Positions 10,517-20,000 of a DNA stretch of 20,000 nucleotides are shown piece after piece. Location of the stretch: positions 46,481-66,480 of IMG/VR virus record IMGVR_UViG_2799112846_000001; one strand, written 5' to 3'. The stretch's first letter is position 1. Each line of letters starts with the position of its first letter. The notes beneath the pieces are model-generated. The model was not told where the DNA came from and did no database searches. It saw only the letters and a program-made list of their open reading frames with translations. Source of the DNA: an uncultured virus (IMG/VR IMGVR_UViG_2799112846_000001). Lineage: Duplodnaviria > Heunggongvirae > Uroviricota > Caudoviricetes. The translations under genes were made by a program, and so were the position numbers.

Positions 10517-13500
10517 ATGGCAAACAATATTACATTAAATGTTGGTGTAGATGCAAGTGACGCTAAGTCAGAAATGCAACGATTTGGAGATGTAGCACAG
10601 AAAGCTATTCAAGCCTCCGACGCTAAAATACAAAAGATGGGATTAAACTTGCAGAACAGCGTCAATAAGATGGAAAAGCTAAACGGTCAAATGACTGAGT
10701 TAGCAAGTAAACGTGTTCCAACTACAGAATATACAGCACTGCAAACTAAGATAAAAGAAGTATCGTCTAGTTTAAAACAAGCTAAAGACAGTCTAAGCGC
10801 ATTAGAAGCTACTTCACTGCATACAGAACAGTATGACTACATAACACAGAAAATACAAGACATAAATAAAGAGTTACAAGACGCTCGACAAAATCTTGGT
10901 AAATCTATTGCAACTTCTGGATATTCTGCTGAAACGGAAGCGTGGACTAACAAAGTTGCTGACCTTGAAGCTAAGTTGATTGAAGCTCAACAGTATCAAC
11001 AAGAGTTAACAGAAGCTGGTCAAAAGTATGCAAATGCTGATGAGTTTACTCCTAAGATAGAGCAGGTTCAATCATTAGAACAAGAGCTGGCGCAGTTGCG
11101 TACTCAAGAAGAAGCTATGAAGGCTGCCGGTACAGATACTATGTCTGGAGCAAACACAGCTAGATATCAAGATTTAGAAAATCAAATGGCATTAGCTCGT
11201 CAACAGTCAATATATATGGCTAATAATTTAGACACCGCCGCAAACTCAGCATCTAAGATGAGTTCTAATTTATCTAAAGGTAAGTCTTGGATGCAACGTG
11301 TTAAAGAATCATGTTCATCTCTTATAAGTAGTTTAAAGCGTGTCGGCAAGCAGTCTACAGAAACCGGAAAAACACACAATACCTCATTCAAGAAAATGCT
11401 TACAACTGTATTAAAATATGGTTTTGGTATTAGAAGTATTTTCTTATTATACAAAAAATTACGTACTGTTATATCTACTGGATTAAGTGAGATGTCTAAG
11501 CAATTCAGTGATGTGGCAGATGATGTATACACACTAAAGAATAGTTGGAGTGGATTTAAGGCAAGTTTAGTTAGTGCTTTTCAGCCTATCTTCTCATATG
11601 TAGTGCCAGCACTTACTACACTTATCAATTATTTAACTACAGCTATGAATGCCTTAGCTAATTTCTTTGCACTGCTTACCGGACAAAGTTATTATTATAA
11701 GGCAAAGAAAGGTAATGAGAGCGTTGCAAAGAGTATAGGAGGAACTGGTTCCGCCGCCGCAGAAGCTAATGAGGAGTTAGCTGAATATGATGACTTGATT
11801 GTTATTGAACAAGACAACAGTTCCGGTGGTGGTAGTGGAGGCAGTGGCTCCTCTGATAGTGATGCTTGGAATTGGGAGAAAGTTGATGTAGAAGCCAATT
11901 CCTGGGTAGACAAAATAAAAAGCGCATTTAGTAATTGGGATTTCACTGAGTTAGGAGCTGAGTTAAGTGCTAAACTTACAGATGTGCTAAAGAATATACC
12001 TTGGGATACGATTTATTCATATGCGTCTAATTTTGGTAAAGGATTAGCAACTTTTCTTAATGGACTTATAACTGAGGATTTATTTAGTGCGTTGGGAACA
12101 ACTATAGGAAACGCAATAAAAACAGCATTAACATTTTTAAATACGTTCGGAACAACTTTTGATTGGACTAACTTTGGTAGTTCTATAGCATCTGGAATCA
12201 ACGCTTTCGTACAGACAAACCCACTGTCTTTAGCTGTAGATACATTTAACACATGGGCTAATGGTATATTAGATACTCTTAATACTGCTGTAGAAGGAGT
12301 AGGTTGGTCTACAATTGGACAGCATATAGCTGATGGTATAGGTAAAGTTGATGCTTGGAATATTGGATGGAAATTGGGCACACTTGTTGACAATTTAGTT
12401 AATGGTGTGTATGACCTAGTATCAATTAAAGATACATGGACAAATCTGGGCACAAAAGTAGCTGACGGCATAAATGGTTTCTTTGAAGGCTTTAGTGGTA
12501 AGGACTTAATAGATACTATGAACGCTATAAAAGACGGTCTGTTTGAAGCTATATCTACCGCTATTAGAAAGATAAAATGGGATGAGGTTGGTAAAGATAT
12601 AACTGACTTCTTAAATGGTGTAGATTTAGGAACAGTGTTATTAACAATAACTTCGGTAGCTTTAGCCGCCGCCACTAAGACATTACTCGCAACAAAGCTT
12701 CCAGCATTACTTAAATCTGAATGTAAAGGTATTATTGGCTTTAATGGAAAAGCAGTATCAGTGGGCACAGTAACACTGTCAGTTATAGCGTCATTAGTTA
12801 TAGGCTGGGAAATAGGAACTAAACTTTATGAGTCACTAACAGGTGAAGAAGTTGAACAGTCTATGTTAGAAGAATGTTGGGATATTCTTGATTTTATAGG
12901 TGGTGATAGTGGTACTATACAAAGTAGATTAACTGGTTATGCTAAACAAGTACTTAGTCCGTTAACATTTCCAGTCAGTGTTGGATGGAATCTGTTTGAA
13001 GAAACCTCTTTGTATGATACACTAAAGACATATTTGCAGAGCGGTGTTGACGAATTAAAGGCAAACTTAGATAATCTAATAAATAATTCATCTATATCAC
13101 AAACAGTAAGTTCATTATGGTCAAAGATTAAAAATGTGTTCACGTCATTCTTTAGCGGAAATGGAACATATGGACATGGTTATAATGGCATGCCATCCGA
13201 GGTTGCGTCAGCGTATGAGTCTTCTCAAGCTAGTAGCTTTTGGAATGATATGGGTAAAAATATAGTTGATGGTATTGTAGAGGGCATAAAACTGTCACTG
13301 CAAACAAATCCATTCACTGCCCCAATAGTAGCTCTTTATGATGCAATTAAAAATGCACTAGCAGATAAGTTTGATTCACACTCACCAGCTAAAGCCATGT
13401 ACGAAGATGGAGAGAATATACTAAATGGTATTATTCAAGGATTTAAGAATGCCATAACATCTATTCCTACTGCCATTGCTGAGTTTTATAATAACTTTAA

Positions 13501-14989
13501 AACTAAGGTTAAAGAGAAATTCCAGAACTTTAGTATAACTGAGTTATTAAGTAATGCGGGAAATATAGCAATCACACTGACAACTACACTTGCAGGCGGA
13601 CTTACAAAGCTAGCTGACTTTACAGGACTCAGCACATTCTTTAGTAATGTGAAGACAAAGTGGAATAATCTTAAATCTACGTTGAAGACTACTCTTAGTG
13701 GAGCATTTAGCTCAATCACAGGTAGCAACAGTTTAACATCACTGTCTAGTTTGTGGAGCGGTTTGAAAGAGAAGTGGGTAGATAAATCAGCGACACTTAA
13801 AACATTCTTAGGTGGTCAAATGTCTTATGTATCCGACTTAACTACGTGGACTAACGCATTTAGTACATTAAGAAGTACTTGGGCAGATAAGACAGCTACT
13901 ATGAAGGCATATGTGGGTGGTGCAGTTAGTAGTATTGAAGATATTGTAAGTAACAGTGCTAACAGCTGGAAAACAAAGTTCACCACATTCGTTAACACTA
14001 TTTGGCAAGACCATACAGCTACTATGAAGGCTACAGCTAATATAGGTGGTCAGGCTGATAATACATTATCAAACTTTAAATACGGCGGTGGTTGGTATAG
14101 TACTGTAACAAACTTCACTAGCAAGATTTGGAAGGACACGCCAGCATTATTTAGCACTACTGCAAAAGTAGGTGATACAACTAATAACTCTCTGTCGGAA
14201 ATGACTTCTAGTGGTTCATCAAATGGCTGGTATAAGAGATTTACAAGTTTTGTAAATACTTGGAAACAAGGTGCAACTGCTTTATTCACAAGTAAGTTCA
14301 CTAACTCGGATACCAACTCACAAGGCTATAAAAACCTGACTGCATTACGTAGTGCATGGAGTCAAACAGCGACAGCACAGTTTACAAGCACTTATACTAA
14401 CTCGGATATGAACTCTGCCGGTTATCAAAACTTTAATGCTTTGTGGCAGAATTGGTATGGAAGAAATGCAGACTTTACACTAAGTTTTTCAGGTAATACA
14501 GCAGACATTAAATCATTAGCAAATAATGTTCTTGATAAGGCATATGATGCACTTGATAGGTCTGGTATTAAAGTTAAAAATAAAGTGTGGATGGCACGAG
14601 GTGGTGTCGTTGCAGGACTTACAAATCTTACAGATATTATGGTTGGTGAAGCAGGTGCCGAAGCTATAGTACCACTTGAAAGAAACTTAGGTTGGCTTGA
14701 TAAGATAGCTACTATGCTTTCCGACAAGTTATTAGCTACTGATTTACCTGATATAGTAACTGGTAAAACTCTTCCATCTACACAAGAGTTTATTTCAACA
14801 TTCAACGCAGGTACTAAGAATATCGAATACCTGTTAGAAGAAGTAATAAATAGACTGTCAGCACTTGAAGATGAGCGCAGTGATATGCAACCAATTCAAA
14901 TACAAGTTGACGGTAGAACAGTCGCACAGGTTGTATGGGATGAAACTGAGAAGCGTTATAAGCAGACCGGCGTAAGATATGGATATTAG
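10517..14989 (+). CDS. Tape measure protein
   Basis: 1490 aa. N-terminal coiled coil, central 'DW...G..IA.GIN.F' amphipathic repeats, 'FDSHSPAK' (HSPS-like) motif, and C-terminal 'MARGGVV...MVGEAGAEAIVPLE' and 'IQVDGRTVAQVVWDE'. Confidence 0.93.
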   Translation: MANNITLNVGVDASDAKSEMQRFGDVAQKAIQASDAKIQKMGLNLQNSVNKMEKLNGQMTELASKRVPTTEYTALQTKIKEVSSSLKQAKDSLSALEATSLHTEQYDYITQKIQDINKELQDARQNLGKSIATSGYSAETEAWTNKVADLEAKLIEAQQYQQELTEAGQKYANADEFTPKIEQVQSLEQELAQLRTQEEAMKAAGTDTMSGANTARYQDLENQMALARQQSIYMANNLDTAANSASKMSSNLSKGKSWMQRVKESCSSLISSLKRVGKQSTETGKTHNTSFKKMLTTVLKYGFGIRSIFLLYKKLRTVISTGLSEMSKQFSDVADDVYTLKNSWSGFKASLVSAFQPIFSYVVPALTTLINYLTTAMNALANFFALLTGQSYYYKAKKGNESVAKSIGGTGSAAAEANEELAEYDDLIVIEQDNSSGGGSGGSGSSDSDAWNWEKVDVEANSWVDKIKSAFSNWDFTELGAELSAKLTDVLKNIPWDTIYSYASNFGKGLATFLNGLITEDLFSALGTTIGNAIKTALTFLNTFGTTFDWTNFGSSIASGINAFVQTNPLSLAVDTFNTWANGILDTLNTAVEGVGWSTIGQHIADGIGKVDAWNIGWKLGTLVDNLVNGVYDLVSIKDTWTNLGTKVADGINGFFEGFSGKDLIDTMNAIKDGLFEAISTAIRKIKWDEVGKDITDFLNGVDLGTVLLTITSVALAAATKTLLATKLPALLKSECKGIIGFNGKAVSVGTVTLSVIASLVIGWEIGTKLYESLTGEEVEQSMLEECWDILDFIGGDSGTIQSRLTGYAKQVLSPLTFPVSVGWNLFEETSLYDTLKTYLQSGVDELKANLDNLINNSSISQTVSSLWSKIKNVFTSFFSGNGTYGHGYNGMPSEVASAYESSQASSFWNDMGKNIVDGIVEGIKLSLQTNPFTAPIVALYDAIKNALADKFDSHSPAKAMYEDGENILNGIIQGFKNAITSIPTAIAEFYNNFKTKVKEKFQNFSITELLSNAGNIAITLTTTLAGGLTKLADFTGLSTFFSNVKTKWNNLKSTLKTTLSGAFSSITGSNSLTSLSSLWSGLKEKWVDKSATLKTFLGGQMSYVSDLTTWTNAFSTLRSTWADKTATMKAYVGGAVSSIEDIVSNSANSWKTKFTTFVNTIWQDHTATMKATANIGGQADNTLSNFKYGGGWYSTVTNFTSKIWKDTPALFSTTAKVGDTTNNSLSEMTSSGSSNGWYKRFTSFVNTWKQGATALFTSKFTNSDTNSQGYKNLTALRSAWSQTATAQFTSTYTNSDMNSAGYQNFNALWQNWYGRNADFTLSFSGNTADIKSLANNVLDKAYDALDRSGIKVKNKVWMARGGVVAGLTNLTDIMVGEAGAEAIVPLERNLGWLDKIATMLSDKLLATDLPDIVTGKTLPSTQEFISTFNAGTKNIEYLLEEVINRLSALEDERSDMQPIQIQVDGRTVAQVVWDETEKRYKQTGVRYGY

Positions 14990-15003: not shown

Positions 15004-15438
15004 ATGTCAGCACCAACATTTAGAGGATATTTAATAAAAGCAGTTAAGACAGATGCTATATTACCACTCAAGTTCATTCAGTGGGACTCCTATAAGATAA
15101 CTCCTAATCAACGTGAAGAGATAAAGGCTTATCGTGATGATAATACTAGAAACTTAACTAGAGTTACAGCAAGCGGTAAGAAAACAGCTATTGAGTTCAA
15201 ACTCAGAGCTATGTGGTTAGAAGATATGATGGAGTTCCAAGGATGGCTTGGGGATGGTATAGAAGATACGCAAGAAGCGCATGAGCAAAGAAAGATACAA
15301 CTTGAAATATACGACACAGAAGAGAACGTATATAAAACAGGTTATTTCTATGTTCCTAATATGGACTATACAATCTTGCGTATTACAGATGATAGCATTA
15401 AGTACAAAGAGCAGACAATTAAGTTTATCGAATATTAA
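15004..15438 (+). CDS. Distal tail protein (Dit-like)
   Basis: 144 aa directly after the TMP with AAGGAG RBS, 'AYRD....L.R', 'YKTG.FYVP...Y' and C-terminal 'FIEY'. Confidence 0.7.
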   Translation: MSAPTFRGYLIKAVKTDAILPLKFIQWDSYKITPNQREEIKAYRDDNTRNLTRVTASGKKTAIEFKLRAMWLEDMMEFQGWLGDGIEDTQEAHEQRKIQLEIYDTEENVYKTGYFYVPNMDYTILRITDDSIKYKEQTIKFIEY

Positions 15439-15449
15439 GGGGTGTTTAT

Positions 15450-17408
15450 ATGGCACAATTTTTACGAATACAAATATATAATAGTGCAGGCACTGAGATT
15501 GAATATGATAATAAACACGACACTGATTGGGGCATTACAACAGGTACAGCTAAACTTGAATCAATTATTATGCTTGAGGAATTAAAGTATGGTACTGTTA
15601 ATGCTAGCATGTTTGAAGTGCAGATATTCGGACTCAACATAGATTTGTCTAAGCGAAAAATAAGGGTTCGTATGGAGTATGATACTATTGATGATGACAG
15701 TGTTATCATAACAGATGAGGATAAAAAGCTCATTACAGATAGCGGTAAGCATTTTAAGTTTGTACATGTTCGTGCAAAAACATTATTCACAGGCACTATT
15801 CAATCAGCTAAAAAGAATAATGCAAACTCTCAAAGAGATATAGTTGCATATGATAGACTGTATGATGATAAGCAAGTTAATATAGCTCCGTTTTGGGAAT
15901 CATTTTGGTCGGGGCATGAGACGGCTACAATAGCACAATTTAGAACAGCACTATTAAATTATATGGGTATAGACTATGTAGCTAAAACGCTACCTAATGA
16001 TTCTGTTCAAATAACTAATACTTTTGCATATGAGGTAACAGAATTAAGTTTTGATACACTGCTACGTATGATAGGTGAGTTACAAGCATTTTGTCCTCAC
16101 ATCAATGGAGTAGGTAAGCTAGAGTTTATTCAGTTGAATGATGACGCTCCGTTAGACATTACTAATAACTCAGAGGGTGAAAGATGTTATTGGGAAGAAT
16201 ATACAACACAGACGATAACTGGTGTAGCTGTCTATGCATCAAGTGTTGAGCTATCACAAGTTGTAGGTAATGAAGGAAATCTGTATAACATAGTTGGTAA
16301 TGTGTTATTACTTAATATGACAGGTGCAGAAATCACAACAATATGTAATAATCTGTTAACCCATTTATCAACAATAAATTATACTCCATTTTATGCATCA
16401 TTGATTATATCTCAACCCGAATCTAATCTTGGTGATAAGGTTATAACTAAATACGGTGATGGATATATAATGCACTCTATATTATCAGGACCCTTACTTA
16501 TAGATGAGTACGTAGATTGCAAAGCGCAAGGACCATATTTAAACACGACAGCAACACAAATAAATGATAGAATAATAGAAGCAAATAAACGTGCAGTTAT
16601 AGAAAAAACCGTAGATGAGTTTTATAGTGAATATACTGACTATACTGAGGATACGACATCTACAATCAGTCAAATGTCCGATAGAGTCGTAGTTAAGGTG
16701 GACAGCAATGGAAATATAGGTTTAGCAGAATTAGGTGCTGACCCAGATACCGGAGTAACTCACATTCAATTAAATGCTAACAGTGTTGATATAAACAGTG
16801 ATACCATACAATTTAATAATGAGGGTTATCGTGTAACTGGTCCGATATTTACGTCTAACATACAACCAGATAAACATGAAACAATTTGTGATTATTCAGA
16901 AATTACAGACAAATCATATTTTCCGCATATAGATTTTAGTAGCACAAAAGCGTTTGAACAGTTATGCTCTTATGTACATCTTAAATCTACTGCAACTTCA
17001 CAGGAGCGTATATTTGGATATAATTGTTTTGTTATAAGTAATTTTACTTTTACAAGTCAATTTATTTCGGGAGACTTTAACGATAGGGTGATACCGAACC
17101 GCACAGTTATAGGTGTGCATCTTACTATGTCACGAACATCCTACACTCAATTTATATCGGATGGAGGGCGTATTTTAGATAGTGGCTATCTAGTATTACC
17201 ATCTAATAAGAGATATACAGATTATCTTGGCACAGCATACCTATCACGATTGACGGAATATACTATTGGTCCGGGTGGTCCTAATATGGCTATTATTGCA
17301 TATTTATCTCCAGAGGATATGATTGACCCTATTGAACAAGGTATGTGGGACATAGTAGAGGGTACCGGAGCAATAGTATGTGTTAACCCAGAGTCTACGT
17401 TAACATAA
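15450..17408 (+). CDS. Baseplate hub / tail-associated (Tal-like) protein with C-terminal extension
   Basis: 652 aa after Dit: 'L.YG.VNAS.FEV', 'LFTG.I.S', 'IVAYD.LY', 'HING.GKLEFI', then a coiled segment 'IEKTVDEF.SEY...STISQ.SD.V' and a distinct C-terminal region. Confidence 0.75.
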   Translation: MAQFLRIQIYNSAGTEIEYDNKHDTDWGITTGTAKLESIIMLEELKYGTVNASMFEVQIFGLNIDLSKRKIRVRMEYDTIDDDSVIITDEDKKLITDSGKHFKFVHVRAKTLFTGTIQSAKKNNANSQRDIVAYDRLYDDKQVNIAPFWESFWSGHETATIAQFRTALLNYMGIDYVAKTLPNDSVQITNTFAYEVTELSFDTLLRMIGELQAFCPHINGVGKLEFIQLNDDAPLDITNNSEGERCYWEEYTTQTITGVAVYASSVELSQVVGNEGNLYNIVGNVLLLNMTGAEITTICNNLLTHLSTINYTPFYASLIISQPESNLGDKVITKYGDGYIMHSILSGPLLIDEYVDCKAQGPYLNTTATQINDRIIEANKRAVIEKTVDEFYSEYTDYTEDTTSTISQMSDRVVVKVDSNGNIGLAELGADPDTGVTHIQLNANSVDINSDTIQFNNEGYRVTGPIFTSNIQPDKHETICDYSEITDKSYFPHIDFSSTKAFEQLCSYVHLKSTATSQERIFGYNCFVISNFTFTSQFISGDFNDRVIPNRTVIGVHLTMSRTSYTQFISDGGRILDSGYLVLPSNKRYTDYLGTAYLSRLTEYTIGPGGPNMAIIAYLSPEDMIDPIEQGMWDIVEGTGAIVCVNPESTLT

Positions 17409-17456
17409 TATTATAGTAAACTAACATTAAAAAGAGTGAAAGTGAGGTGCAAGATA

Positions 17457-18110
17457 ATGGATGAAGATATTAGAATAAAAGACTTACCCTTAGTAGAAGA
17501 CGGAATACAGTCAACTGATTATATAGCTGTTGATAATGAAGATGATGGCACACGAAAAGCAACTATGCAAGATATTGCAGAAGCTAATATAAATGGCTTA
17601 GAAACAGAAGCAACTAATACAAAAGGAGCTATAAACGAGTTATTTAATAAGGCATCAAGAACGGTGTCCTTAACACAGGCTGAATATGATGCTTTACCAG
17701 CTAGTAAATTGAGTGATGATATAGCTTATTTTATTACTGATGGAGAACCTGATGTAGATAATACATTGTGGGCAAAGGTAGGTAGAGCTACACTAGATAC
17801 TCAAGCTCAAAACTGTAGTGAGGCTATAAATGAGATAAAGCAGAGTTTATCTAACTTACTAACAATTAAATCTATAACTGTTAGTCATGGTACGATAAAT
17901 GCAGGGCAAGCTAGTACAATAACAGATGCTAGACTTAAAAATGAAAATATAATCATTTGTTCTATAAGTGTTGGAGGTTCGTACAATAGTGATTGTATTC
18001 CTTGGTCTTACTATGGAAGTGCAAATGGTTTTGTATCACGTTTAAAAAACACGGGAAGCAATCAGGCTACAAATATTGTAGTAACTTATAGATATATAGA
18101 ATTGCCATAA
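17457..18110 (+). CDS. Tail fibre / receptor-binding-like protein 1 with variable C-terminal domain
   Basis: ATG at 17457 after GAGGTG. N-terminal 'IRIKDLP...DYIAVD....TRKAT', 'LETEA....GAINEL', 'LTQAEYDALP....DDIAYFITD' and 'AINEIKQSLS', then a beta-rich domain of about 85 aa. Confidence 0.7.
   Translation: MDEDIRIKDLPLVEDGIQSTDYIAVDNEDDGTRKATMQDIAEANINGLETEATNTKGAINELFNKASRTVSLTQAEYDALPASKLSDDIAYFITDGEPDVDNTLWAKVGRATLDTQAQNCSEAINEIKQSLSNLLTIKSITVSHGTINAGQASTITDARLKNENIIICSISVGGSYNSDCIPWSYYGSANGFVSRLKNTGSNQATNIVVTYRYIELP
17829..17856 (+). repeat. Palindromic site, type A copy 1 (AATGAGATAAA-gcagag-TTTATCTAACT)
   Basis: TGAGATAAAGCAGAGTTTATCT (17831-17852) is identical at 19314-19335 and 19355-19376. 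AGATAAA/TTTATCT arms flank a 6-bp asymmetric core. Confidence 0.9.
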
Positions 18111-18126
18111 TTTTAAATTAAAGGTT

Positions 18127-18154
18127 AGTCAGATAAAAAAGCATTTTGTTGACA
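18127..18154 (+). repeat. Palindromic site, type B copy 1 (AGTCAGATAAA-aaagca-TTTTGTTGACA)
   Basis: ATAAAAAAGCATTTTGTTGAC (18133-18153) is identical at 19902-19922. The left arm is the exact reverse complement of the type A right arm TTTATCTGACT (19370-19380). Confidence 0.85.
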
Positions 18155-18228
18155 AAGTTAAATCATAAAGAGGAATATAGTATGATACATATACACTTAC
18201 CAATAGAAGTATATAGGAGGTTTATGAT

Positions 18229-19161
18229 ATGATAAATGTAATTCAAAAGTTAGCATATAAATCAAACTATGGTAAAACTCGTAGTGCTGATTCTATTAAA
18301 TATATAGTCATTCATTACACCGCCAATGATGGAGATAAAGCGTGGAATAATGCTAATTACTTCGCTAATAATTCTAATCTAAAAGCTAGCGCACATTATT
18401 TTGTAGATGATAATTATATTTATCAAAGTGTGCCTGATACTGCAATAGCGTATTCAGTAGGCGGTAAGAAACTGAATAGTCATGGCAGACTTCACGGAAT
18501 ATGCACTAATGCAAATAGTCTTAATGTAGAATTATGCGACACTGAGAAGAACGGTAAATATAATGTAACGCAAGCCACTATAAATAGAGCAATCGAACTT
18601 GTAGCACTGCTGATGTTCACCTATAATATTTCTAGTGATAATGTAATTAGACATTATGACGTTACTGGTAAAGAATGTCCTAAGTATTGGATAGATAATA
18701 ACAAATGGGAGTTAGAGTTCAAACTTCCGTTAATATCTACTTACAACAAGAAATATCGGGTAGGTTGGATTGAAGATGTAAAAGGTTGGTGGTATAGATA
18801 TGAAGACGGTACATATCCAAAATCACAGTGGGTAACAATAGATGGTAAAGACTATTACTTCAATGCAGATGGATACATGGCTAGCAAAGAATATATCAAA
18901 TCTGCTGACTATGACACTAACAAGAAGCTCTATTGGGTAGACAAAGATGGAGCTTGGAACGGTAAAGAATATACATGGAAGCAAGACGCAAAAGGTTGGT
19001 GGCTAGCAGAGATTGGTGGTAAATGGTATGCTCAAAATGAATGGGCGAAGATAGATGGCAAGTGGTATTACTTTGACGATACTGGATATATGGTAGCAAA
19101 TAGAATTAAAACGATAGACGGAAATGTGTATCAATTTAGAACTGATGGCACTTTAGTATAG
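18229..19161 (+). CDS. Endolysin: N-acetylmuramoyl-L-alanine amidase (Amidase_2) with C-terminal cell-wall/choline-binding-type repeats
   Basis: 'IKYIVIHYTAN', 'ASAHYFVD', 'NANSLNVELC' and 'VIRHYDVTGKECP' catalytic motifs; C-terminal 'GWW', 'W..IDGK.YYF...GYM' repeats; AGGAGG RBS. Confidence 0.93.
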   Translation: MINVIQKLAYKSNYGKTRSADSIKYIVIHYTANDGDKAWNNANYFANNSNLKASAHYFVDDNYIYQSVPDTAIAYSVGGKKLNSHGRLHGICTNANSLNVELCDTEKNGKYNVTQATINRAIELVALLMFTYNISSDNVIRHYDVTGKECPKYWIDNNKWELEFKLPLISTYNKKYRVGWIEDVKGWWYRYEDGTYPKSQWVTIDGKDYYFNADGYMASKEYIKSADYDTNKKLYWVDKDGAWNGKEYTWKQDAKGWWLAEIGGKWYAQNEWAKIDGKWYYFDDTGYMVANRIKTIDGNVYQFRTDGTLV

Positions 19162-19173
19162 GGGGTGTAAATC

Positions 19174-19670
19174 ATGCCAAAAGTAATATTAAATGGAATA
19201 GAATATGCAAGTGGACTCGACCAAACAACATATGGAAAGATAGGTGATGAACCTCTTGAGACAGAAGCGCAAGATTTATCAGGAGCTACAAATGAGCATG
19301 AAAATGATATTAGTGAGATAAAGCAGAGTTTATCTGACATGAAAATGATATTAGTGAGATAAAGCAGAGTTTATCTGACTTAGACACCGACTTAACGAAT
19401 ACCATAGCAAAGTTAATTCCATTTACTAAGAATCACACTAATATAGACCTTAACACACAGAGAGCAGAAGCCAAGATATTAAGTGGTAATAATTGGGTTA
19501 ATGGCGCAAGTACTAACTATTCTATAGTGTTTATATTTCCTAATCCTAACGCTGATTATGTGTTCCAAATGCAGATTATCAATAATTGGAATGGTTCTTT
19601 TAGAATTGCGGCTAGACACTCGAAATCGTCAAGTGAGTGGGGAGCATGGCAAACTATATTTAATTTCTAA
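19174..19670 (+). pseudogene. Tail fibre/RBP-like gene 2 (possible pyocin-knob-like C-terminus), frameshifted by a 41-bp tandem duplication
   Basis: ORF 19174-19362 is paralogous to fibre 1 (KIGDEPLETEAQDLSGATNE..ISEIKQSLS). A second frame open from 19338 to 19670 encodes HENDISEIKQSLSDLDTDLTNTIAKLIPF...RIAARHSKSSSEWGAWQTIFNF*. Removing one 41-bp copy gives a continuous 151-aa ORF. Confidence 0.75.
19297..19378 (+). repeat. Perfect 41-bp tandem duplication containing type A site copies 2 and 3
   Basis: CATGAAAATGATATTAGTGAGATAAAGCAGAGTTTATCTGA at 19297-19337 and 19338-19378. Confidence 0.97.
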
Positions 19671-19685
19671 CTGAGATAAAAAGCA
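19668..19685 (+). repeat. Partial type B site (TAACTGAGATAAA-aagca, right arm absent)
   Basis: Left arm and near-core overlap the fibre 2 stop codon and are followed directly by an AAGGAGG RBS instead of the TTTTGTTGAC arm. Confidence 0.6.
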
Positions 19686-19700
19686 AAAGGAGGTGTTTTT

Positions 19701-19901
19701 ATGGCAACATCTAGTATTACACATAATTTTGTTATAAGAAACAAAGAAAGTGCAGTAAAGTTTGTTGAGGTTTTAGATAAGTCAAAAATTAAAAAATCAA
19801 CAGTTGATTTTCGACATATATCCGATACAAAAGAGATAAAACATCTTTTGGATAAGTGTCGAAATGTTGGAGAATGTGAGAACTCTGATGTTATTAGTTA
19901 A
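19701..19901 (+). CDS. Small hypothetical protein (MATSSITHNFVI...)
   Basis: 66-aa ORF with a strong AAGGAGGT RBS. Its stop codon lies within the left arm of the downstream type B site. Confidence 0.7.
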   Translation: MATSSITHNFVIRNKESAVKFVEVLDKSKIKKSTVDFRHISDTKEIKHLLDKCRNVGECENSDVIS

Positions 19902-19923
19902 ATAAAAAAGCATTTTGTTGACT
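19896..19923 (+). repeat. Palindromic site, type B second full copy (AGTTAAATAAA-aaagca-TTTTGTTGACT)
   Basis: 21 bp identical to 18133-18153; outer arms TTAGT...ACTAA are complementary. Confidence 0.85.
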
Positions 19924-19936
19924 AACTAGATAGAAC

Positions 19937-19965
19937 TTTACACTTGACAATTTTATATGTATAAT
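19937..19965 (+). promoter_or_regulatory. Sigma-A-type promoter candidate for the next gene (RBS at about 19982-19989, ATG at 19998)
   Basis: TTTACA (19937-19942), 17-bp spacer, TATAAT (19960-19965), followed by AAAGGAGGT and an ATG at the window end. Confidence 0.6.
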
Positions 19966-20000
19966 TATTATGTAAACTATAAAGGAGGTATATTCCAATG

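Follow-up and report, generated by a model that had tools for sequence, protein, structure and literature searches.

The question raised by this locus is how a phage comes to carry two small tail-fibre genes whose DNA agrees over one short site and has otherwise nothing in common. The window (the whole stretch of DNA that was analysed, 20,000 nucleotides in length) covers positions 46,481 to 66,480 of an uncultured virus of the Caudoviricetes (IMG/VR IMGVR_UViG_2799112846_000001) and equals C29:46481-66480, the terminal part of the 66,480-bp contig C29. It contains two putative fibre or receptor-binding protein (RBP) genes, each with an N-terminal part and a C-terminal head. The first-pass annotation had proposed that these heads are cassettes exchanged by a recombinase at two classes of palindromic sites with 11-6-11 geometry. 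The head-coding segments were found to be bounded by two conserved boxes, box A in the reading frame and box B at or directly past the stop codon, and different heads were found between these boxes in related phages. Exchange of heads by homologous recombination at the boxes is the explanation favoured here.

Conserved boxes at both ends of the head domains

Fibre gene 1 is located at 17457..18110 on the plus strand (217 aa, with an alternative GTG start at 17436) and comprises an N-terminal part, a helix and a beta-sandwich head, the last designated cassette v1 (~17859-18110). The constant N-terminal part of fibre gene 2 lies at 19174..19337 and its head, cassette v2, at 19379..19670, both on the plus strand, with the head in frame with 19338 onward. 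The two genes had been described as paralogues similar up to the peptide EIKQSLS. Similarity at this joint was indeed present; it is confined to a stretch of ~58 residues at and near the joint, with 41% identity when the intact fibre-2-type relative P0017 is taken in place of the broken gene 2 of the window, and only 34 nt are common at the DNA level, the similar block on fibre gene 1 being 17825-17858.

Box A is the 21-mer GAGATAAAGCAGAGTTTATCT, which codes for EIKQSLS and was located at 17832..17852 (box A1, plus strand), 19315-19335, 19356-19376 and C29:77-97. No further copy with up to two mismatches was found in the 2.45-Mb assembly. The pattern AGATAAA-N6-TTTNTNT has three sites (six matches with both strands counted) against 0.03 expected, and six matches were reached in none of 200 shuffles. 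The arms flanking GCAGAG pair at 7/7 positions and, when extended to 11 nt, at 10/11 in fibre gene 2 and 9/11 in fibre gene 1. With 9 in the contig and 1.5 in shuffles, 11-6-11 palindromes with at most one mismatch are not rare as such. The single-stranded DNA hairpins are weak (-2.8 to -4.4 kcal/mol); that of the fibre-2 box A has z = -3.85, with 0/200 shuffles folding as well, and the hairpins formed by A1 and by the B sites lie at shuffle level. Directly after A1, at the start of head v1 (17858-17885), comes another 10/11 palindrome, again with a spacer of 6 nt (ACTAACAATTA-AATCTA-TAACTGTTAGT). A dif-like identity of A or B was rejected by eye, the arms being unlike a nearby dif-type 11-mer.

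A random synonymous encoding of EIKQSLS under phage codon usage would equal box A with p ~0.0015, yet fibre genes 1 and 2 are the same there. Box A is the same at all seven codons among genes with otherwise unrelated flanks, and the adjoining codons vary synonymously (AGT/AGC, ATT/ATA, GAC/GAT); the wider sample of box A DNA, obtained by DNA pattern search, is biased toward exact A. A codon-degenerate search of IMG/VR for EIKQSLS[DN]L returned only the contig L011 and one unrelated gene, and is uninformative on synonymous variation. In 400 genomes of the host's family, box A with up to two mismatches gave three matches (two mismatches each) compared with one for a reversed-pattern control, which is chance level, and a degenerate A pattern in genome contigs gave eight loci, none of them in a fibre context.

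Box B has the consensus TAGTSAGATAAAAAAGCATTT and lies at or directly past a stop codon at 18123-18156, 19894-19925 and C29:333-365. Within it a 21-mer, ATAAAAAAGCATTTTGTTGAC, is present at 18133-18153, 19902-19922 and C29:342-362, with no other copy in the assembly. Box B1 (GGTTAGTCAGATAAAAAAGCATTTTGTTGAC..., 18123..18156) stands 13 nt past the TAA stop and includes a TAG in the reading frame of fibre gene 1; a partial box B' (TAACTGAGATAAAAAGCA, 19668..19685), one base short, coincides with the v2 stop, and box B2 (TTAGTTAAATAAAAAAGCATTTTGTTGAC) is at 19894..19925, all three on the plus strand. The left arm and spacer of B are conserved, and the right arm changes from phage to phage (TTTTGTT, TTTATCT, TTTAACA, TTTAATT, AAAATCC). 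In the window the arms of B pair at 7/10 positions and form no 11-6-11 palindrome, so that the geometry originally assigned to both sites holds for A alone. All A and B sites are on the plus strand in direct orientation; the sites themselves and the order first described for them were borne out. The two boxes resemble each other (69% ungapped over 32 nt), and box B of L011 reads AGATAAA-AAAGCA-TTTATCT, with the same arms as A.

The possibility that B acts as a terminator was not borne out, as no terminator-like site was found in 17300-20000 and B has no terminator-type hairpin. Promoter-like sites in the same interval numbered 15 against a shuffle mean of 14.6, which is no excess; the only strong promoter, TTTACA-17-TATAAT, is at 19937-19965, 15-45 nt downstream of B2. 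A 16-mer of B matched at least 119 loci in IMG/VR (L012-L091), which are unspecific chance matches and were set aside. Between B' and B2 the window has a small ORF (open reading frame) of 66 aa at 19701..19901 on the plus strand (phrog_6339, unknown function), present in the v2 allele only. On the reverse strand of the metagenome contig L132, at 1110-1423, a zinc-ribbon-like ORF, also of 66 aa, that has two CxxC pairs and a promoter-like sequence of its own (TTTACA...TATACT) stands between two B boxes; the two ORFs are unrelated in sequence.

Alternative heads between the boxes

The assembly offered two heads for fibre gene 2. The contig C29 opens with 99 nt that recur at window 19239-19337 and closes with 99 nt that recur at C29:342-440, without a difference in either case, and 22 assembly contigs, C29 among them, share such 99-nt ends. 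It follows that the assembly is a k=99 graph, in which C29 follows a circular path and takes both branches of a bubble. The left anchor of this bubble (19239..19337, plus strand) ends in box A, and the right anchor (19902..20000, plus strand), which includes the strong promoter mentioned above, starts in box B. Between them lie either allele v2, 564 nt including the small ORF, or allele v3, 242 nt (C29:100-341) encoding an intact protein that ends in ...KLYHLGAIS; the circle would measure 66,040 bp with v2 and 65,718 bp with v3. Judged from these contig ends, v2 and v3 are alternatives at one fibre-2 locus that differ solely between A and B. Nothing else in the assembly resembles the contig, which means that it holds no silent store of cassettes.

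All or part of the stretch is contained in 20 of the 22 listed sequencing runs, the best being X1 (0.91 of words), which is labelled a metagenome; the comparisons with X1, X2, X3 and X5 rest on Logan contigs, not on reads. Parts of the stretch that lack contig cover in these runs, and the runs with a small share of it (X3-X20), were left out of account for any statement on habitat or absence. In X1 the flanks have depths of 8.9-10.5, v2 a depth of 4.1 and a 295-nt contig matching v3 a depth of 7.5 (contig means, not read counts). This 295-nt contig starts 30 nt ahead of the allelic base, spans v3 and reaches 30 nt into B. Both v2 and v3 are thus present in X1, the probable source metagenome. 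Another X1 contig has unrelated sequence before A, representing a further A-bearing gene in the sample.

Fibre gene 2 had been taken as a single ORF at 19174-19670, which the assembled sequence does not sustain. A perfect 41-bp tandem duplication (two copies, 19297..19378, with 19297-19337 equal to 19338-19378) contains boxes A2a (19315-19335) and A2b (19356-19376) and shifts the frame, so that the assembled ORF stops at 19362 after 62 aa and the v2 head is read from 19338 in another frame. The additional A site previously listed at 19314 (ending ACATG) is simply in the first copy of this duplication and exists only because of it. The duplication junction falls within one base of the point where v2 and v3 diverge. 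Single copies of the 41 bp are found in the v3 allele and in the fibre-2-type proteins P0016 and P0017 from other samples. Among the Logan contigs of X1, one breaks off at 19337 and the one with v2 begins at 19349; these ends would fit a k=31 graph lacking the duplication junction, with which a break near 19326 would be expected. The duplication is probably an assembly join or a minor variant, and these observations suggest that it lies outside the cassette system.

Breaks in relatives of the phage fell at the same boxes. In X3, a run from another study, as is X5, one contig matches fibre gene 1 over 17637-17858 and continues into a v3-like head (GAACTTGATACCATAACACTT...), and a second has a v3-like end (...TATCATCTTGGACCTATAA) followed by a match from 18124 through the endolysin gene. 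Two X5 contigs join 17858 to 18123 and 17858 to 18126 with other letters between, and at fibre gene 2 the X3 joints run from 19336 to 19902 and from 19339 to 19894, again with other letters between. The comparison with relatives advised in the first-pass annotation therefore gave loss of identity at A and its resumption at B, and the view that A and B bound exchangeable modules, of ~0.25-0.55 kb, is upheld by the v2 and v3 alleles, these joints, the cassettes shared between contigs and the mixing of protein parts described below. A diverged relative in X2 has no fibre gene 2 at all: the endolysin end at 19140 is joined to 19947, in the promoter region past B2, with 34 other letters between.

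A metagenome pattern search in which the left arm of A was left free gave 17 loci, 11 of them in unrelated contexts. The remaining six are of fibre type and lie on five contigs: L132, L133/L134 (the same contig as IMG/VR L011), L141, L142 and L145; the contigs behind L132, L141, L142 and L145 were examined in part. Except for L011 gene 2, the fibre-type loci read (G/C)AGATA AAG CAG AGT TTA TCT, with adjoining codons that vary (AGT/AGC/ACT, ATT/ATA/GTT, GAC/GAT/AAC). The arms of A are kept in five of the six A-type joints (L132 with C for G) and lost in L011 gene 2. Following the six A-bearing genes outside the window, box B comes after the stop codon in four (L132, L011 gene 1, L141, L145) and is degenerate in L011 gene 2. 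In L142 it is unreadable, the 1093-bp contig ending right after TAGTGAGA in what we take to be sequencing-adapter sequence.

Compared by blastn with these five contigs, the fibre region of the window shares A (27-48 nt at 85-100%) and B (20-33 nt at 90-100%) and nothing more, with two exceptions: a stretch of 267 nt in v3, beginning within A and extending to B, is 89% identical to L011 gene 2, and L141 repeats 65-71 nt of the N-terminal part of fibre 2. The v3-like head of L011 gene 2 stands behind a diverged A (TCATTGAAACAGAGTGTATCT) that is not palindromic. Between L132 and L011 gene 1, a 98%-identical block extends from AGATAAAGCAGAG to right after AGATAAAAAAGCA, with unrelated N-termini and unrelated downstream DNA. 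Boundaries of cassettes shared by unrelated genes start in A and finish in B, and the apparent breakpoints scatter from within A to ~10 nt to its right. A protein search for relatives of fibre 1 in IMG/VR gave none.

Further combinations came from searches of a collection of 5.8 billion proteins. P0005 has the fibre 1 N-terminus with a new head; P0016 has the fibre 2 N-terminus with another new head, joined directly after SLS; P0017 combines a fibre-2-like N-terminus with the L145 head; and P0012 carries a head 100% identical to v3 behind a different N-terminus, with the junction SQIKQSLSDL. In P0006-P0008, v1-like heads stand behind other N-termini with a different joint (ALNSKISTIK-like). 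The fibre-2 N-terminus was thus found with v2, v3, the P0016 head and the L145-type head (P0017), the fibre-1 N-terminus with v1 and the P0005 head, and the v3 head behind three N-termini. By manual count over contigs and proteins of other metagenomes there are at least six kinds of N-terminus and at least eight kinds of head. Such mixing indicates that exchange at the joint is recurrent and does not depend strictly on the A peptide. When 11 proteins were aligned, KQS.S proved invariant, I, L and L nearly so, and the rest varied. P0013, a protein of 103 aa from another sample, joins the first 23 residues of an L011-gene-2-type N-terminus to SDLELDT and a v3-like head; it is a natural internal deletion ending at the joint.

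Fibre proteins and gene content of the phage

Pfam and PHROGs searches with both fibre proteins identified no family, the only match being a sub-threshold one to Phage_tail_C. An AlphaFold model of the gene 1 product, built on a 10-row alignment, has a mean pLDDT (predicted local distance difference test) of 66, with residues 1-61 unmodelled. In the model a long helix (113-134) holds EIKQSLS, and a beta-sandwich (137-215, block pLDDT 75-94) follows directly. Fibre 1 may accordingly be read as an anchor, a helix and then a head. A Foldseek search of this model against the PDB gave no match at an expect value (E) of 0.001 or below; the weak top rows, all above E 0.001, were phage fibres, tailspike C-termini, H-type lectins and jelly rolls, and in the ESM Atlas only viral hypothetical clusters, leads at most, were returned.

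Between the two fibre genes lies the endolysin gene (18229..19161, plus strand), encoding an Amidase_2 domain and choline-binding repeats. Upstream of the fibre genes are those for the tape measure (1490 aa), a DUF6711 protein and a 652-aa tail protein, and for this reason both small genes are considered to occupy the usual place of a siphovirus RBP. Comparison of 15400-20000 with GenBank phages by blastn gave only two 77-nt matches, to Agathobaculum phages, within the endolysin region.

The contig C29 is a whole virulent-type phage with nearly all ORFs on one strand. Pfam scans covered 78 ORFs of C29:1-46655 and seven window proteins, and PHROGs scans 47 proteins. For replication and packaging they indicated PolA, a DnaB-type helicase, a primase, a clamp, a clamp loader of which one subunit has an intein, and the terminase, small as well as large. 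The recombination genes are a UvsX-like RecA, a single-stranded DNA-binding protein (SSB), a Cas4-domain exonuclease and two Holliday-junction resolvases, and there are at least three endonuclease genes of HNH or homing type (HNH/GIY-YIG-type). Zero tyrosine or serine recombinases were detected in these scans: the tyrosine family PF00589 had eight matches in the assembly and the serine family PF00239 two, none of them on C29. Neither type was found in a related 24.9-kb record (41% complete). No reverse-transcriptase family, as would be expected of a diversity-generating retroelement, was present among the scanned ORFs of the window and C29:1-46655, and a self-comparison of C29 gave no template-like copy of any head.

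The clamp-loader gene (DNA pol III gamma/tau-like) is split by the intein at C29:30969-33062 (L009:11969-14059; Intein_splicing and PT-HINT matches). A NUMOD3 homing endonuclease gene is located near it, and HNH endonucleases are encoded at C29:3731-4381 and 24289-24969. Genes for a TET-associated glycosyltransferase and a second sugar-transferase-like protein, at C29:19692-20573 and 13450-14157, suggest that the phage DNA is hypermodified; the phage also has a Lar restriction-alleviation gene and one of ArdC-like type. Seven distinct places in the 66-kb phage carry the 11-mer TTATGTAAACT, and only one does in the other 2.38 Mb. Its phage sites are window 19968-19978 (also C29:408) and six more in C29, four of them lying on the minus strand in ~1 kb (C29:44369-45317). 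The sole copy outside the phage, on contig C32 and preceded by ACTTCC..., is presumably the host's chromosomal dif site; the 11-mer has a putative likeness to the XerD arm of dif. The phage sites could be a promoter or origin element of the phage, or Xer-related.

Routes of exchange and comparison with known systems

In the mechanism proposed here, the N-terminal part of these small siphovirus-type RBPs would fix the protein to the tail, the helix would end in EIKQSLS(D/N)L and the beta-sandwich head would recognise the host. The head-coding cassette would begin in A (in frame, with ~21-38 nt kept letter for letter) and finish in B (the stop codon and ~18 nt). Where two phages of the group share a cell, the head could be exchanged by one crossover in A and one in or beyond B, catalysed by the UvsX-like recombinase, SSB, exonuclease and junction resolvases of the phage or by host RecA. 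Recombinants with a new host specificity would then be selected, and repeated exchange would keep the boxes identical in otherwise unrelated genes. Both the homologous nature of the crossovers and their attribution to enzymes of the phage itself are inferences. Homologous exchange of head domains at the conserved boxes is considered rather likely, and it is favoured because the boxes are islands of identity, because the phage has a recombination toolkit and because T-even phages and PeSL elements provide precedents. As in conserved-motif exchange, conserved islands flank the variable segments and the relatives are mosaics with breakpoints at the motifs.

Several observations weigh against this explanation. 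The identity of the boxes extends over only 21-38 nt, a length near the lower limit for efficient RecA-type exchange, and in the runs, as represented by Logan contigs, a recombination event was not directly seen. Homologous recombination explains neither the palindrome of A nor the likeness of A and B. It also leaves unexplained the conservation of non-coding B among unrelated downstream DNA, for which a terminator or promoter function was sought in 17300-20000 and none found, and the small ORFs between B copies. Such ORFs occur in the window (66 aa, between B' and B2) and in L132, and the arrangement looks like site-directed insertion. All six copies of the 11-mer AGT[GC]AGATAAA in the phage contig fall at A or B, and the other 2.38 Mb has five copies; being confined to A and B in the phage, the 11-mer bounds each head with an 11-nt direct repeat.

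The following features would speak for a dedicated enzyme acting at the AGTSAGATAAA-bearing sites, whether a host recombinase (e.g. Xer-type), an unrecognised phage protein or a site-specific nuclease, by cut-and-paste or break-stimulated repair. The palindrome of A (10/11 and 9/11) has its 6-nt spacer exactly at the joint, the fibre-2 A hairpin beats 200/200 shuffles (z = -3.85), the 11-mer is restricted to A and B and these agree at 69% over 32 nt, L011 B carries the arms of A, a B-ORF-B arrangement occurs twice, and a possible source of the enzyme exists in the eight tyrosine-recombinase matches of the host assembly and the HNH and homing endonucleases of the phage. We nevertheless consider such an enzyme, which comes close to the first proposal, unlikely, and exchange driven by a recombinase found no support: no tyrosine or serine recombinase is found on the complete 66-kb phage or the 24.9-kb record (41% complete), the right arm of B is unlike in each phage, and L011 gene 2 has a v3-like head behind a non-palindromic A, so the palindrome is dispensable in one relative. 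Moreover, v1-like heads stand behind another joint peptide, apparent breakpoints fall at various places within A and up to ~10 nt beyond it on the right, the A1 and B hairpins are at shuffle level, no joints are listed for X1 among its Logan contigs, and intramolecular recombination between direct A sites would delete the endolysin gene. In a fuller version, which is held to be just as improbable, A and B would be two forms of one ~27-nt site (AGTSAGAT..AAAGCA..TTT) and heads and small ORFs would be cassettes moved between phages by an unrecognised enzyme, either a host recombinase in trans or a phage HNH-type nuclease breaking the palindrome. If true, it would amount to an integron-like, in-frame host-range cassette system in virulent phages of gut anaerobes.

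Alternatively, the boxes may merely be functional sequence, A as the end of a trimer helix before the head and B as a 3' signal of the gene; the boxes would then not promote recombination, exchanges would arise by rare recombination of any sort, only chimeras at the domain boundary would survive, and the identity would reflect recent common descent. The invariant KQS.S, with I, L and L nearly so, in 11 proteins, the position of the A peptide at the predicted helix end directly before the head, the shuffling of heads behind the ALNSKISTIK-like joint (P0006-P0008) and the joining of the P0016 head directly after SLS would all be consistent with this. This reading is held to be doubtful, and slightly less plausible than a dedicated enzyme; the sameness of A at all seven codons despite unrelated flanks and synonymously varying adjoining codons (in a sample biased toward exact A) speaks against it, as does the conservation of B as an island although it is non-coding. 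That nothing is ongoing in the phage, the A/B pattern being a by-product of two strains or an assembly error merged in one contig, is very improbable. In its favour, the label of the source is that of a metagenome, the contig passes through both branches of the graph and, at the branch point, the 41-bp duplication has the appearance of an artefact of joining. Against this stand the real depth of both branches in X1 (4.1 and 7.5, with flanks at 8.9-10.5) and the recurrence of the same boxes and breakpoints in independent studies and collections, and even a mixture would consist of two near-identical phages differing by just one cassette.

With homologous exchange at the boxes as the preferred reading, an uncultured gut/rumen phage group would change its host recognition by means of a fixed anchor and plug-in heads drawn from a shared pool, with boundaries at the nucleotide level. 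The boxes offer a handle for finding cassettes in metagenomes and for predicting which phages can trade specificity. They also bear on whether short conserved linkers promote exchange or only mark viable joints, a question that has stood since the modular theory of phage evolution.

The closest known case is that of the T-even phages, whose adhesin specificity is described as swapped by recombination at conserved motifs (PMC3157838, citing Tetart 1998). Short conserved in-frame motifs flank variable specificity segments in both cases, chimeras arise at or near the motifs, and a virulent phage has its own UvsX-type recombination system. Unlike the T-even fibres so described, the genes here have a single in-frame box and a second, non-coding box past the stop, and the unit of exchange is the whole head domain with its stop codon and at times an extra small ORF. 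The in-frame box is in addition palindromic and related to the 3' box, and the proteins are unrelated small siphovirus-type RBPs. In T4-like phages, short conserved PeSL elements mediate modular shuffling, and their authors leave open whether homologous or site-specific recombination is responsible (PMC4122927). These elements share with the present boxes their role as short conserved intergenic exchange points between unrelated sequences and the small ORFs between copies (compare B-ORF-B). They are presented there as units of a promoter and a stem-loop terminator in hyperplastic early-gene regions (PMC4122927), whereas B lacks a terminator hairpin and A lies in a coding frame.

Invertase shufflons, namely Gin (Mu), Cin (P1), Min (p15B) and Rin (Bifidobacterium prophages), vary the tips of fibres or RBPs (PMC6109161). 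They resemble this locus in their constant N-terminal and variable C-terminal parts and in a short in-frame joint site (the 11-bp rix in Rin). They differ in that they need an invertase close by, sites in inverted orientation and silent cassettes within one genome (PMC6109161); here the sites are direct and the alternatives come from other genomes. The sites are all on the plus strand, no cassette copies were found elsewhere in the assembly and no invertase was detected in the scans.

Recombinase-mediated cassette exchange with heterospecific sites is known from Cre/lox and Flp/FRT engineering, and arms around a central spacer are the geometry of Xer/dif sites. The present locus is like these in having two different sites in direct order flanking a segment, with the arms of A around a 6-nt spacer. 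It is unlike them in that no phage recombinase is present, either in the element or beside the sites, in that B has no conserved right arm, so that conserved inverted arms are lacking at one of the two sites, and in that the contigs, the only material compared, give no evidence for a crossover in the spacer. The RBPs of lactococcal phages, which are modular with shoulder, neck and head, likewise have a conserved N-terminal part and an exchangeable head at a short neck, and belong to siphoviruses of Gram-positive hosts. No sequence match or significant fold match between them and the fibres was obtained with Pfam, PHROGs or Foldseek, and we know of no description of conserved nucleotide boxes at both ends of the head in lactococcal RBPs.

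The exchange of tips at conserved motifs is therefore a kind already known from T-even phages, and by analogy the present case would appear to work like T-even and PeSL exchange and not like a shufflon or a lox/dif-type system. What is particular here is the presence of related nucleotide boxes at both ends of the head, one in frame and palindromic and the other with the stop codon, together with the B-ORF-B insertions and the coexistence of two heads at one locus of one phage population.

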